Origin: Pseudomonadota bacterium | Lineage (GTDB): Bacteria; Bdellovibrionota_B; Oligoflexia; Oligoflexales; RGVZ01 | DNA length: 64,000 bases | NCBI GenBank assembly: GCA_041178085.1 | Contig: JBEGVZ010000114.1 | Location: 2,882-66,881, forward strand | Direction: 5' to 3' | In this document: one piece after another, positions 43,001 to 49,000 of the stretch | How the letters are laid out: every line of letters starts with the position of its first letter | Position numbering within the stretch: the first letter of the stretch is position 1 | Program-made: the position numbers

Positions 43001-46000
43001 AGCGCAACCATGGCGGTTCCTTCGTTGAACTTCGGCAGGAAGTCGCGACCCATGAAGGGGACCAGGCTTGCCGCGACCACGAAAAGGAAGATCGAAGTAC
43101 CAATGACAAGTTTGCTTCTTGGCAAGGCCCATTCGAGGACCTTCCGGTCGACGTTCTTCATCCATCTGACAAAGCCTGTTTCTCCGCGGCTCGTGGAATG
43201 AGACGGAAGGAAATATGCGCAAAGCGCTGGTGTCAGGGTGAGGGAAACGACAAGGGATGCGGCAAGGGCTGTCAGGTAGGCGATCCCGAGGGGGGCGAAT
43301 AACCTGCCTTCAAGGCCATCAAGGCTGAACAAGGGAATGAAAACGAGGGCGATGATTGCTGTTGCCAGTACGATGGAATTCCTGACCTCACTAGACGCAT
43401 CAAAAATAACTGCGAGCCGCGGCCTTGGCGATGCCAGCGTACTGTTTTCACGGAGCCTCCGAAAAACATTCTCGACATCAACGATAGAATCATCAACCAG
43501 CTCACCGATGGCAATCGCAAGGCCGCCCAGGGTCATGGTGTTGACCGTAAGCCCGAAGACATGGAAGACAATCGCGGTGACCAAAAAAGACACGGGTATT
43601 GCGGTCAAGGTAATAGCCGACATGCGCAGGTTCGCAAGAAAAACGAAGAGAACCAGGAAGACAAGCAGTGTGCCGGATTTAAGCTTCCGCGTGATGCCGT
43701 CGATTGACGCTGTGATGAAGTTTGCCTGTTTGAACACATCGGGATTGATGATGACACTGGCGGGGAGTGAGGGGCGCAGTTCATCGATGGCCCGCGCGAC
43801 TGCGCTGGTGATAGCGACCGTGTCGGCACCGGGCTGTTTTTGTATGGTCATGACCACCGATGGCTTGCCGTTGAAGCTGCCGTCTCCGCGCTTGAGCTGT
43901 GGCGCTTCCGCAACCTCCGCAATGTCCTGGACAAGGACGGGCCGCCCCAGGTGAAGGCCAACAAGGGTCTTTTTGATGTCGTTAATGTTTTCGACGACGC
44001 CGATATTGCGAACGAGATACTCCTGGGCATCTTTTTCAAGAAACCCACCGGTCGTGTTGCGACTGATCTGGGACAGTTCCTTGTCCACGCTCTCGATGGA
44101 GAGTTGATAGCGGTTCAGTTTTTCTGCGGAGACCATGATCTGGTATTGCTTGAGACCCCCACCGATGGAAATCACCTGGGCAATGCCGGATATGGTCATC
44201 AGTCTGGGACGAAGGGTCCATTCCGCAATGTCTCGAAGGGCCATCGGTCCGATTGAGGGATCATCCGAGTAGACAGCGATTTGCTGGATCTGCCCCATAA
44301 GAGATCCCACTGGACCCATGACGGGGGCAGTTCCTGCAGGTAGTCTGTCCCGTGATAAATTTAGCTTCTCCTGGACAAGCTGGCGGTTGCGGTAGATGTC
44401 GGTACCCCACTGAAACTCAACGTAGATCACAGACAGACCAATTCCAGACTGAGACCGGATTCGATCAACGCCGGGCAAGCCGTTCAGGTGGGATTCCAAG
44501 GGGAATGTGACTCGGGTTTCGACCTCTTCCGGTGCCATGCCGTGAGCCTCTGTCATGACTGTGACAGTTGGCTTGGTGATGTCCGGAAAAACATCGACAG
44601 GGAGGCTTTTTGCGACGATCCCGCCGTAGACAGTTATCAGTGCCGCCAGGGCAACAACTGATAAACGGTGGTTGAGTGCAAACCTTATGACGCGGTTCAG
44701 CACAGTCACTCCGAAGTCGGTAAATTTGCGGAAAGACTATCAATTCTTCGCGCTGAAGGCCAGCATTCGGCGTTTTAGCTGGCACGGGTAAGATCGATTT
44801 ATTTCCGGCTACCTTGGACAAACATTCAATCTTTGGCATTCCCAGAGATAGACACTTCCACAAGTTTCTTCAGCGCCGTTCGACTGTAAGGAATCTCCCT
44901 ACGAGGACGTTCCTCTTCCGCCGGCATCTGGCCGTTTTCGTCGCCTGCAAGCGTCCGAACAGTAGCGAACTTGCTCCCAGTCCCTCTCCCACTTCTTGCG
45001 CCAGGTAAACGGGCGATTGCAGGCTGCGCATACTTTCGTGGGCAGGTCCGATTTTTTCGTGCCCATGAAGAGCCTCGTCCTCTCACTGATGGAACAGGGT
45101 TTGAAGGGGTAGAGTCTGAGTCCTTTGTATCAACACAAAAGCCACCCCGGATTAAAGATCGAAAAATGCGAGCGCGTGAATGAGACTCTCGCGCGGGATA
45201 TTCAAGGCAGGAGTAAGTGACAGTGAAGTTCCGCCGGAACCAGAAGCAAGCGCGATCACTCCGCGGCACCGCAACACATCCATCGCTACGGCCCCAGGTG
45301 CTGAGCCAGCGGATTCGTGGAACTTGATTGCAAGCATCAGACCACCGCCCCAGCGAATTTCCTCAATGCGCGGATCCTTTTCATATTTGAGCTGAAGCTC
45401 TTGGTAAAGCCAGGCCCCGGTTTCGCTTGCCATCTTGCAGGCATCGATTCGTTTCATTTCACGTAGCGATGCCGTTGCCACAGCGCAAGAGAGGGGATGT
45501 CCAAAAAAGGTTCCCGTATGAATCGCCTCACCTGTGCTTTTGGGCCAGGCCGACATGACCTCCTCTGTTCCAGCGCAGGCCGAGAGCGGCATCCCACCGC
45601 CCAGGGCTTTGCCAAAGCAAACAAGATCTGCGTCAACCACGTCTGCCTCGGTCCACTTGCCGCGACGACCCAGACCCGTAAGGATTTCATCCAAAATCAA
45701 GACGCCGCGCTGTTGATGAGCAAGGCCGGCAAGTTCGCGAAGCCAGCCTTTTGGTGGATTAATGACACCGCCACGGCCTTGCACAGGTTCGGCGATGATG
45801 CCTGCAAAACCACAGGGCATCGCTTGGAGCGTCCGCATCGCGTCAACAATTAACCCACTGTCACAACCATAAGGCAATTCGATCGCCACTCGCTCGCAAA
45901 GGTATTTGCTGAATGGCTTTTTGAAGTCACTGCGTGAGGTGACTGGCAGTACACCCAGGTCCACTCCGTGGTACCCGTCCTTGAAGCAAATAAATCCTGC

Positions 46001-49000
46001 GCAATCCGTCTTTAGCATGGCGGTCTTGAGGGCCACTTCGATTGCCTGGCCGCCCGAGATGGCAAGTGAAATCCGTGACAACCTCGACGGCAACACAGAA
46101 CGCAGTTCTTCAATCAGCTCAATTTTTGACCGGGACGGATAAACGTCCCCCATGCCGTGGGCGATGGGGAAGAAATCTGCACCTGCATAACGCCCAAAGA
46201 CTTCTCTGACAACGGCCGGGTTATGTCCAAGGGCAAGCGCGCCAAAACCAGCACAAAGGTCGACATATGCACGGCCTTCGACATCGCGGATGATTGATCC
46301 AGTTCCTGATTCAAAGACAAGAGGATTGGCATCGGCGGAAACCGGATAGGTCGCGTCGTGGCACTCAAGGGCCATCAAGCGGGACATCCATGCGGCATTG
46401 GTTTCCGTTTTCTTCATACGCCTTTGGCCCGCGGATGCCAGATGTACTTGTGCATTTGCAGTTGCATGCGACCCGGAGCCTTGGCCTCAATCATCCAATC
46501 GGCAAGGTCCTTTGGCGGCACCAGCCCAAAGGCGCAGGAAAAGAGAACCCCGCAGCGGGTGTCGAGGCGATTTTTACGGACGACATCAAGGGCCCAGTCA
46601 AAATCGTCGCGGTTTGAAACAACAAACTTGATTTCGTCCGTCGCCTTGAGGAAATCCAGGTTGGCCCAGAGGTTTCTATCTGCCATGCCACTTCCGGGGC
46701 ACTTTAAGTCCATGATGACATGAACTTCACGTGGGATATCGGCGATCGATTCCGAGCCACCCGTCTCGATCATCACCCGGTAGTCCTGATCGACCAGTTT
46801 TTGCATGAGCGGGATCACGCCTTTTTGGGCGAGGGGCTCGCCGCCAGTCAGCTCGACGTGTTTCAATTGAAATTCAGCAACTTTGGCAAGGACCTCATCT
46901 TCCGTGAAGTCCTTCCCCCCCTCAAACCCATAAGCTGTGTCGCACCAGCGGCACCGGAGCGGACAGCCCGTCAGGCGGACAAAGACGCATGGGAAGCCGC
47001 TAAAGGCAGCCTCGCCTTGAATGCTCGCGTAAATCTCTGTAATCCTTAGGGGACTCATTTTTCTGGAGCGCCGCCTTGCCGAGTGATTCTGGACACCAGC
47101 CAAACCAGCCCGTCCAGCTGGTAAGTTCCTCGGAGCTTCTAGTCCAAGCGGTCCAAGCTTTCAAGTCAGGCAACCTGCAAAGCCTTGGCCTTGCTGGATT
47201 TGGCGTCTTCTTACCCCAGATTCTATCGACCTGGCTGCTGGCTCCGGCATCGCACCAGGCGGCGGGAAACATCTGGTCCGCAGCCCTGGACGTAAAAAAG
47301 GGCGCCGCGATCGATGGTTCGACCTTTCCGGGAATTTTGGGTCAAGCGGCTGAATTTTATAGGCTTTTCGGTTTTATCAACCTCCTCTTGTGGCTTGTAT
47401 TCACGGCGGCTTACCTGGCCATGCTGTACCAAAGCCTTCACCACATGCGCCCTTGGGCGTTTCCACGGCTCAGCCTGAGGGAGCTTCTCGGGGACATGGT
47501 GCGTCTAACGCTCAAGCGGGGCATTCTGCTGGCAGCGCTGGTTGTATCGCTTTGCTTTTTACTCACGGCATTTTTGACATCACTGGGCTTTGGCAACCAG
47601 GCGGACGGTCTGATCTCCCTCTTTGTGATCCCTCTTTCCCTCATGGCGCCCGTCCTGATGGTAGCGGAGCACAAAAGCGCGCTGCGCAGCCTGACCCATG
47701 CTTTGACCTTACGCTATGCCCGCCGGGTGGCGTTTGGCGGTGCTTCTGCTGTTCTCAGCCTGGTGACAATTTTCGGATTATTTTTCTGCATTGAATACCT
47801 GTTCTCATGGATTGGGTCTGAAGCTCTCGACTGGTTTGCCACTGGCACGCCTCAGTTCCTTGCAATGGCCTTGCCCGGCATGCCGTTCAGCGTGGGTTTT
47901 GCTCTGGTTGACCTGGTCCAATCCATGCTCACGACGAGCATGATTTGTCTACTGCCGGGCGCCACCGCTGCGCTTTACATTCAGGTTCACTTTCGCAATT
48001 CAAGGCGTGATCTCTCGATCCTTGCCTGAAGAGCGCTGAATTGGTTTGGCTGCGGGCCGAAGGCCTGTTCGCCGAAGTGCCCTAGAACATGCCCAGCCAA
48101 GCCGCGTAAAAGACAAGCCTCCACTGACGCCACAGAGATACCGCGTCCGATTTCAGCGAGTCCTGTTAAAAAACTTCCATGGGCACGCCCGCGCCTGTAT
48201 CCAGGCTCACGACTTGGGTGGGCAAGGTACTTTGAGATCATCGGCCGGTCACAATCGATGATCAGCGATGCCTGATAAAGCAAATAGTTTCGACTGCGAA
48301 AGAGCGACGTCCCACCGAATTTCATGTCGCCGGCAACGAGGTCGCTGATCCCTGCTTCGCCCAAAATTGCGTCGAAAGCGAATCCAGCATGGAGGCAGGA
48401 GTTGACGGCGCTGTTAAGGAGGCGAAAGTAGCGGTCGTTGTGAAAGTGCTCGGTTACCCACATACCGAGGCTTACGATCACACAGCCCGGGTAAAGGACG
48501 ACCGTCCCTCCGCCACCATAGCGTTTCAGTACTGGAACACCGTCGGACAAACACGCAGGGAGGTTGCATTCGACTGCAGGATCATTGCTGCTCCCGCAGA
48601 CGACAACCGTTTCCCTGGGCACCCAAACGTCGATAACCAGAGGACGGTCATGCCGCTCAAGAATGTGGTCATCAATCCACAATCAAAAACTCCCACCTGT
48701 CGACTGCATGATCCACGTGGCAAACTTGAAGTAAATGACAATGCCGGCGACGTCGGAAAGAGATGCGATGAAAGGCGAGGAACTGACGGCAGGATCGAGG
48801 CGAAACGCCTTCATGACAAAAGGCATCATCGCGCCAAGGATACCGCCAAAAAGGACAACTGCCACCAAGGTTACGCCGACCGTCAAGCCAACCACTGGCG
48901 ACTGACCCCACGTCGTGGCACGGACAAATCCGATTGCACCGAGAATCAGCCCCAACGACAGCCCGGCAAGAGCCTCGCGCTTGAACACGCGGCCGAAATC

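Follow-up and report, generated by a model that had tools for sequence, protein, structure and literature searches.

The window, by which we mean the whole 64,000-nucleotide stretch of DNA that was analysed, carries queE, the gene for the synthase of 7-carboxy-7-deazaguanine (CDG), with the gene of a PLP-dependent aminotransferase directly behind it (Table 1). The four-nucleotide overlap of the two genes described in the first-pass annotation can be read in the sequence as a common ATGA, an arrangement that suggests translational coupling. The queE product scores 282.8 bits on TIGR04349 (NCBIfam cut-off of 300), and alignment to the solved QueE structures 6NHL, 5TGS, and 4NJG shows that it shares their QGE, Arg, CxxxCxxC, and TGGEP motifs; the QueE of genomes with QueC/QueF is of the same subtype and has the same motifs. 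No preQ1 riboswitch reached the Rfam gathering score in the window or at four loci, and a scan for promoters and terminators returned matches no commoner than chance. No RNA data set was listed among the sequencing runs searched.

Table 1. Genes and features of the queE-aminotransferase locus and of the LuxE-LuxC fusion encoded elsewhere in the same genome (G000)
Feature	Position	Strand	Size	Basis
queE, radical SAM CDG synthase	46414-47058	minus	214 aa	TIGR04349 and motifs
Class III (fold type I) PLP aminotransferase, distinct family	45152-46417	minus	421 aa	PF00202
ATGA stop/start overlap of queE and aminotransferase	46414-46417	minus	4 bases in common	Sequence
LuxE-LuxC fusion (P0194), outside the window	G000:C85:53027-55189	minus	720 aa	

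The remainder of the queuosine pathway in G000 is as listed previously, with two copies of FolE, a QueD-like protein, and QueE upstream, and a preQ1-type Tgt, QueA, and QueG downstream. The QueD-like protein is a two-domain form with the motif CxxxxHGH and falls below the QueD cut-off, while the Tgt has the Val of preQ1-type enzymes; the Tgt motifs were GGLSVG and GGLAVG, the latter being the motif of preQ1 Tgt enzymes (PMC11570991). Between the two halves of the pathway, QueC had no profile match in the genome (96% complete), QueF had two weak matches alone (25.8 and 22.6 bits), both on FolE genes, and tblastn with four QueC-family and four QueF proteins of relatives found nothing at E<0.01, such that profile searches and tblastn agree on the gap that had been reported. 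A YhhQ/QPTR-type transporter is present, also as reported, and salvage could supply preQ1. It should be noted that G000 is unlike a salvage-only queuosine user in that the QueD-like protein and QueE are intact alongside YhhQ.

The aminotransferase matches Aminotran_3 (PF00202) at 225.8 bits against a gathering cut-off of 30.5 (E 1e-66), but none of the NCBIfam matches listed (25 of 69) reached its cut-off. The named class III equivalogs compared were PigE, PatA, ArgD, GabT, BioA, HemL, and EctB, and the best of the matches listed was PigE, at 210 bits (the top score in the first-pass annotation too) against 850. The structure model (pLDDT 96) has TM-scores of 0.82-0.89 to ArgD, GabT, and PatA. 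In fold type I enzymes a Lys binds PLP and an Asp binds the pyridinium, and the corresponding Lys270 and Asp243 are invariant in all 79 rows of the family alignment, which is further marked by Glu18, GD(V/L)(H/Y), QGR, and EA.HT.T. Glutamate-using enzymes of the PatA/GabT type recognise both of their substrates by means of a C-terminal Arg together with the Glu of EP.QGE. At the site of the usual Glu, 75 of the 79 rows have Arg215 (five paralogues retain the Glu), and the five commonest letters at position 400 (S, T, Q, A, and E) do not include Arg. Given that the usual Glu/Arg pair is missing, the chemistry or the amino donor may be atypical. A tree places the aminotransferase in one clade with luxE/luxC-fused and tgt-linked members, and four PigE-like long proteins outside that clade. 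Borderline matches in G011, G083, and G002 were rejected as paralogues by motif, a genome-contig scan with a single aminotransferase protein as query returned true relatives at one of eight loci, and phage and plasmid records held only 29-34% paralogues among the matches listed (10 of 65 and 8 of 389).

Fusions within this family point to a candidate for the reductase that the earlier proposal lacked. Two family members have a fused Pfam LuxE domain, one has a fused Pfam LuxC domain, and three more have a similar C-terminal LuxE-like tail; the fused LuxE and LuxC domains match the family of the G000 fusion with HHalign probabilities of 99.8% and 97.9%. These fusions tie a LuxE-LuxC-like reductase to the aminotransferase family. 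The fusion on contig C85 itself matched none of the Pfam families at E<0.01, PF04443 and PF05893 included. In a fold search (VIA-align), LuxC 7XC6_A was its best match among 48,161 chains (Z 22.9, rmsd 3.9, 351 aligned, ~10% identity) and its N-terminal half matched AMP-ligases (6SIW, Z 19.4), with Cys324 and Cys566 invariant in 25 of 25 alignment rows. A relative at the metagenome locus L178 does score on Pfam (LuxC 144.9 and LuxE 103.8 bits) and matches both 7XC6 chains by sequence. It is likely that the C85 fusion is the acid-to-aldehyde reductase. The canonical luxE-luxC pair on C49/C42 was rejected as the partner of the aminotransferase, since its distribution is patchy (~18 of the 131 genomes score strongly for LuxC) and does not track that of the aminotransferase.

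The aminotransferase and the LuxE-LuxC fusion have a common distribution among the 131 genomes of the phylum. Of the 121 genomes without QueF, 113 have the aminotransferase and 116 the fusion, while among the 10 genomes with a strong QueF each occurs once. Neither occurs in the seven genomes with a full QueC, so the mutual exclusion of QueC and the aminotransferase claimed earlier holds and, moreover, extends to QueF. The related claim that QueF appears only as weak matches on FolE genes is accurate for G000 but not for the phylum, as these 10 genomes have a strong QueF; nine of them lack the aminotransferase. The exception, G013, has its queF on a stretch of 50.8% GC compared to 33-35% at its other loci, and this contig is probably a contaminant. 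If its queF is genuine, G013 would have both routes. All QueC/QueF genomes belong to two families (f3 and f17), and QueD and QueE are retained without QueC in ~110 genomes. Of the 131 genomes, 126 have QueA. G011, G012, and G097 lack not only QueA but also QueE, the aminotransferase, and the fusion, and in the Tgt of both G011 and G012 a Gly stands in place of the Val of preQ1-type enzymes.

Two further genomes, G098 and G023, were considered and rejected as carriers of two routes, as their QueC-like proteins score 121 and 67 against the TIGR00364 cut-off of 150 and neither has QueF. In G023 (G021 in the first-pass annotation), what had been taken for a fragment of QueC at 46 bits is a defence-type QueC-like protein of 200 aa, to which the PADLOC QueC model gives 230 bits. 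That of G098 adjoins a TIR gene, and the PADLOC score alone does not part it from true QueC (75 vs 83-94 bits).

Conservation of the gene pair, originally described from 35 loci, persists when the count is widened to the 86 genomes with this QueE subtype, 72 of which have the aminotransferase directly behind queE, but it is not universal: in four of the other 14 the two genes are on different contigs and 10 have no aminotransferase. The aminotransferase is not adjacent to queE in other families, and in G128 it lies behind queA-tgt. Neighbours at 80 metagenome loci of the family included queE (38), luxC (16), and luxE (14), with no QueC or QueF at these loci; L178 has an operon of queE-aminotransferase-luxEC, and 27 loci have neither queE nor luxE/luxC. 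A ksgA neighbour is common to 33 of the 80 loci, which are thus probably one lineage. On the tree, three separate branches of the family have queE as a neighbour, a fourth has queA-tgt, and the luxE/luxC neighbourhood falls on a branch separate from these. The module is retained with three unrelated QueE subtypes. Within f3, QueD (CxxxHGH) and QueE are of the same kind under either route, which places the branch point at CDG. The QueE and QueA trees have seven route changes in their best form and two that are forced; as these trees are poorly resolved, and the AU test does not reject a single f3 clade (p-AU 0.08), counting independent switches was given up. Related genomes are not independent, and at least two switches are forced.

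We consider it likely that the aminotransferase and the LuxE-LuxC fusion replace QueC and QueF: CDG would first be adenylated, then reduced to the 7-formyl compound, and finally converted to preQ1 by transamination, thereby bypassing preQ0. Judging by family membership, FolE, the QueD-like enzyme, and QueE would supply CDG. The LuxE-like half would use ATP to convert the CDG carboxylate to an adenylate and then to a thioester on Cys324, and the LuxC-like half would take the acyl group onto Cys566 for an NAD(P)H-dependent reduction that gives 7-formyl-7-deazaguanine. Proposed here as a 7-formyl-7-deazaguanine aminotransferase, the PLP enzyme would yield preQ1, which Tgt, QueA, and QueG would carry on to queuosine. 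We infer all substrates and products of the route, the amino donor, and the choice of cofactor; what is observed is the genes and their folds, the conservation of catalytic residues, the gene fusions and neighbourhoods, and the distribution of the module. The acid-to-aldehyde-to-amine scheme of the first-pass annotation is thereby supported, through the reductase tied in by fusion and distribution, the link to queA-tgt, and the joint absence with QueA. On this reading the queE-aminotransferase pair would not suffice by itself to replace QueC/QueF, and the fusion would be needed as a third gene. Chemistry from thioester via aldehyde to amine has precedents in TabE/TabA (10.1101/2025.08.11.669332) and LuxE/LuxC (PMC9157457).

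It counts against this route that characterised LuxE/LuxC enzymes act on fatty acids. An unlikely alternative is that the product of LuxEC and the aminotransferase is an unrelated amine, such as a fatty amine, with the link to queE an inherited gene order and preQ1 salvaged via YhhQ. The substrates of LuxE/LuxC (PMC9157457) and TabE/TabA (10.1101/2025.08.11.669332) are fatty acyl groups, G000 does have YhhQ, related genomes are not independent, few route switches are forced, and the proximity of luxEC to queA falls inside an inherited scpA/scpB block (not in f3 or f19). An unrelated amine would nevertheless leave unexplained the retention of QueD and QueE without QueC, the lack of both genes in nine of the 10 QueF genomes and in the three genomes without QueA and QueE, and the separate meetings of the family with queE and queA-tgt, and the luxE-luxC pair of canonical type does not follow the aminotransferase.

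Slightly less likely again is that the module acts on CDG with another outcome: the product could be an amide or alcohol, or a substituted amine destined for a metabolite or for DNA, or the PLP step could differ from plain transamination. QueA requires the primary amine of preQ1, and its presence in nearly all genomes and loss along with the module in three, together with the preQ1-type Val of Tgt, argue against another product, as does the lack of a family member that stood out among the phage and plasmid matches listed. Arg215 in place of the Glu of putrescine aminotransferase and the paralogues, a position 400 without Arg, and extra oxidoreductases at some loci (Gfo/Idh/MocA in nine, plus an extended SDR) are in favour of it, as are phages with FolE-QueD-QueE and without QueC that make other CDG products (PMC10516641). 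A route with no reductase, in which QueE contracts a formyl or hydroxymethyl pterin from the two-domain QueD directly to the aldehyde and the aminotransferase completes the conversion, draws on a QueD form not found in QueC/QueF genomes but is very improbable and was rejected, as this form tracks family and not route (it is missing in 16 of 16 f3 genomes, aminotransferase-bearing ones included, five of five of which, where checked, have canonical CxxxHGH QueD), QueE in both groups keeps the Arg and Thr motifs seen in the solved structures, and LuxEC tracks the aminotransferase.

To our knowledge, de novo queuosine synthesis is confined to bacteria. Beyond the phylum, it seems reasonably probable, though less so than the route itself, that preQ1 has a second de novo route, in which a LuxE/LuxC-type reductase of a heteroaromatic acid and a dedicated PLP enzyme have been swapped with QueC/QueF more than once. 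A literature search that covered few subscription papers found none describing this route. PMC11130926 and PMC11570991 give one route to queuosine, via QueC and QueF, and rest pathway profiles on the presence of QueD, QueE, QueC, and QueF; a route free of QueC/QueF would therefore alter which bacteria count as producers. If the proposal is true, preQ1 can be made without preQ0, and genomes scored as 'incomplete' or as 'salvagers' would be full queuosine producers. Additionally, the unannotated aminotransferase family would gain its first cellular job, as would the LuxE-LuxC family outside luminescence, and the known natural reductases would gain one that acts on a heteroaromatic acid.

The canonical queuosine pathway (PMC11130926, PMC11570991, PMC13740343) and the one proposed here have in common FolE/QueD/QueE upstream, Tgt/QueA/QueG downstream, the start at CDG, and the end at preQ1. 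They differ in that the canonical pathway uses QueC and QueF with the nitrile preQ0, whereas neither enzyme is present here and the proposed intermediate is an aldehyde; a QueF review mentions 7-formyl-7-deazaguanine solely as a product that leaks from QueF mutants. Like the LuxC-LuxE fatty acid reductase (7XC6, PMC9157457), the C85 fusion has an AMP-ligase half with a C-terminal Cys and an ALDH-fold half with a catalytic Cys. Unlike the luminous enzymes, it is a single, distantly related chain with links to tRNA modification and an aminotransferase, and its proposed substrate is a heteroaromatic acid. TabE/TabA of tambjamine and PigE of prodigiosin, each a thioester reductase with a class III aminotransferase, follow the same logic from thioester to aldehyde to amine (10.1101/2025.08.11.669332; PMC8341465). 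The aminotransferase here falls far under the PigE cut-off, and its pathway would be one of primary tRNA metabolism. With PatA/YgjG, ArgD, and GabT it shares the fold and the PLP Lys and Asp, but at 24-30% identity (structural alignments), with Arg215 for Glu and motifs of its own. The LuxE-like half also has a weak structural match (Z 15.6, 11% identity) to PDB 3HGU, which we take to be the phenazine protein EhpF, adenylating a heteroaromatic acid ahead of reduction; if that role holds, it is a precedent for a heteroaromatic acid as the substrate of the LuxE-like half.

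The queuosine gene complement of the source genome (96% complete) consists of QueE, two FolE, a two-domain QueD-like protein, QueA, QueG, a normal Tgt on contig C8, a second Tgt fused to a methyltransferase, and YhhQ. Family searches of this genome, and tblastn searches using eight proteins of its relatives, recovered neither QueC nor QueF; this upholds the absence claimed in the first-pass annotation. The start of a class III aminotransferase gene and the stop of queE share the sequence ATGA, as the previously reported 4-nt overlap implied, and the GC content of the two genes is 55–56% versus 56% for the genome. 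None of the best 25 of 69 NCBIfam families reached its cut-off for the aminotransferase, and its structural model (pLDDT 96) aligns with ArgD, GabT, and PatA at TM scores of 0.82–0.89 and 24–30% identity. An arginine (Arg215) replaces the usual glutamate and there is no arginine at position 400, so its amino donor may be atypical. In the Tgt fusion, the Tgt part scores above its cut-off and the MnmC2-like part reaches 60 of 136 bits; similar long Tgt frames occur in two other genomes (G053 and G081), and the target of the fusion could be the inserted base or U34.

Features of the queE-aminotransferase locus and of related loci (L, individual locus; G, genome; C, contig)
Feature	Location	Strand	Details
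queE	window 46414-47058	minus	214 aa
Class III aminotransferase	window 45152-46417	minus	421 aa; PF00202, 225.8 bits
Membrane protein, lipoate-ligase-like gene, mgtE	window 47076-50086		5' of queE
Efflux-like genes	window 36699-44709		named by eye; between the aminotransferase and valS
Tgt fused to MnmC2-like methyltransferase	L254:1447-3501 (source genome, C87)		684 aa
Second luxE-luxC pair	L132:5233-8543 (source genome, C49)		canonical-scoring; long LuxC frame
Tgt of G012	L326:1465-2634		motif GGSLGG
Tgt of G011	L327:1477-2643		motif GGSLGG
QueC-like gene of G098	L047:170-1267		below QueC cut-off
QueC-like gene of G023	L048:270-872		below QueC cut-off
ThyX-like protein	L178:10070-11632		520 aa; two matched stretches
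Aminotransferase with radical SAM, DUF1152, cupin	L208:4616-11201		PRAI-like gene opposite

A candidate for the accompanying reductase emerged from relatives of the aminotransferase sought in 1.84 billion cluster representatives. Family members of 774–860 aa were recovered, with a Pfam LuxE domain in two and a Pfam LuxC domain in one, and three further members end in a similar LuxE-like tail. Used as queries, these tails led to a gene on contig C85 of the source genome that encodes a protein of 720 aa. The protein itself has no Pfam match, but the profile of its family aligns with the LuxE and LuxC domains of the fused members (99.8% and 97.9%, respectively), its model has the LuxC of 7XC6 as the best of 48,161 chains (Z 22.9, followed by aldehyde dehydrogenases at 20.2) with AMP-ligase matches for the N-terminal half, and in the ESM Atlas it sits in a LuxC/LuxE cluster that is mostly Bdellovibrionota. 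Cys324 and Cys566 are invariant in all 25 rows compared. In LuxE/LuxC, as described in PMC9157457, the acyl-AMP is passed to a LuxE cysteine and then a LuxC cysteine, and the aldehyde is released with NADPH. Here, 7-carboxy-7-deazaguanine (CDG) would be converted to CDG-AMP, a thioester, 7-formyl-7-deazaguanine, and finally preQ1, and replacement of QueC and QueF by this predicted route is the most likely reading, held with good confidence. The second luxE-luxC pair of the source genome, with a LuxE piece on contig C42, is patchy across the phylum, and three genomes (G120, G123, and G130) have two copies of the luxEC fusion.

Among the 131 genomes of the phylum set, source genome included, QueE of this subtype (matches under 55 bits excluded) occurs in 86 (84 full, 2 short pieces), with the aminotransferase directly 3' in 72, on another contig in 4, and missing in 10. 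Nine of these ten have a strong QueF, seven of the nine also a full QueC, and the tenth is 53% complete. Other QueE subtypes occur in families f13 (3 of 4 genomes) and f19 (32 of 33), which retain the aminotransferase family away from queE. The fusion was found in 117 genomes. With aminotransferase membership assigned by profile score and nine borderline rows checked by motif, aminotransferase and fusion occur in 113 and 116 of the 121 genomes without QueF, in one each of the 10 with strong QueF, and in none of the seven with full QueC, in line with the mutual exclusion with QueC proposed earlier. The two genes occur together in 113 genomes and are both missing from 13; five genomes, 66–94% complete, have just one of them. 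An unrelated amine as the product of this module, with preQ1 supplied by salvage, seems unlikely; YhhQ in the source genome makes salvage possible, and de novo queuosine producers also carry YhhQ-type transporters (PMC11130926).

Of the 13 genomes with neither gene, nine have QueF and one, G026, is 53% complete; QueA and QueE are missing from the remaining three (G011, G012, and G097) as well. The Tgt of G011 and G012 has glycine where preQ1 enzymes have valine, and the shared motif is near, though not identical to, the queuine-salvage pattern GG[LS][AS]G given in PMC11570991; a switch of both genomes to queuine salvage is probable. G097 (74% complete) has no Tgt match. The exception that combines QueF with the module, G013, has its queF in a segment with 50.8% GC (L167, contig C8) versus 33–35% at its other three loci, so this contig is probably a binning contaminant. 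The QueC-like genes of two module-bearing genomes, one of which adjoins a ThsB-like TIR gene, probably belong to defence loci.

In a 44-row tree, the 30 family rows, including fused, lux-linked, queE-linked, and tgt-linked members, are separated from 14 paralogues with support of 100, and the queE link occurs in three separate branches. The aminotransferase of G128 lies directly 3' of queA and tgt. For 82 genomes outside f19 with both genes, luxEC shares the strand of queA and lies no more than 11 kb upstream of it in 60 (abutting in G049 and G075), further off in one, and on another contig in 21, with two genomes with split matches scored by the piece on the queA contig. Little weight is given to this proximity because the block is co-inherited with scpA/scpB and missing in f3 and f19; in two f3 genomes luxEC is 3' of cmoB, another tRNA-modification gene. 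The best 80 of 597 confirmed metagenome loci, from a more distant part of the family, include QueE in 38, LuxC in 16, LuxE in 14, and one or more of the three in 53, while QueC, QueF, QueD, Tgt, and QueA occur in none of the 80, many on short contigs. A ksgA neighbour is common to 33, probably one lineage. In locus L178, queE, the aminotransferase, and a luxEC fusion stand in a row, with a ThyX-like gene directly 3'. A different deazapurine as the product of the module is slightly less probable still than an unrelated amine.

Elsewhere, valS is directly 3' of the aminotransferase in several relatives, whereas the efflux-like genes intervene here. Additional oxidoreductases recur 3' of the aminotransferase: the Gfo/Idh/MocA type in nine metagenome loci (L231 and eight others), and an extended SDR in the group L201, L216, and L247 (one of three scanned). 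The aminotransferase of L208 may be a copy recruited for another product.

Canonical QueD (CxxxHGH) occurs in all five module genomes and four of five QueC genomes compared in f3, and QueE subtype and motifs are the same for both routes, thus CDG is likely their common intermediate. Direct formation of the aldehyde by QueD/QueE is very improbable. QueC/QueF genomes are confined to two families; the QueE and QueA trees need seven changes, just two of them forced, and the AU test did not reject a single f3 clade (p-AU 0.08). The short QueF of G016 and the long QueF of G018 hint at two acquisitions in f3.

The publications cited here describe a preQ1 route through QueC/QueF alone (PMC11130926, PMC11570991, PMC13740343, PMC10516641), and no published description of the module route was found in searches of openly accessible literature. 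This phylum combines a split arrangement of the three genes with the occurrence of both routes in closely related genomes, and it offers a joint-loss control. For the proposed chemistry from CDG to preQ1, TabE/TabA (10.1101/2025.08.11.669332) and PigE (PMC8341465) provide precedents.
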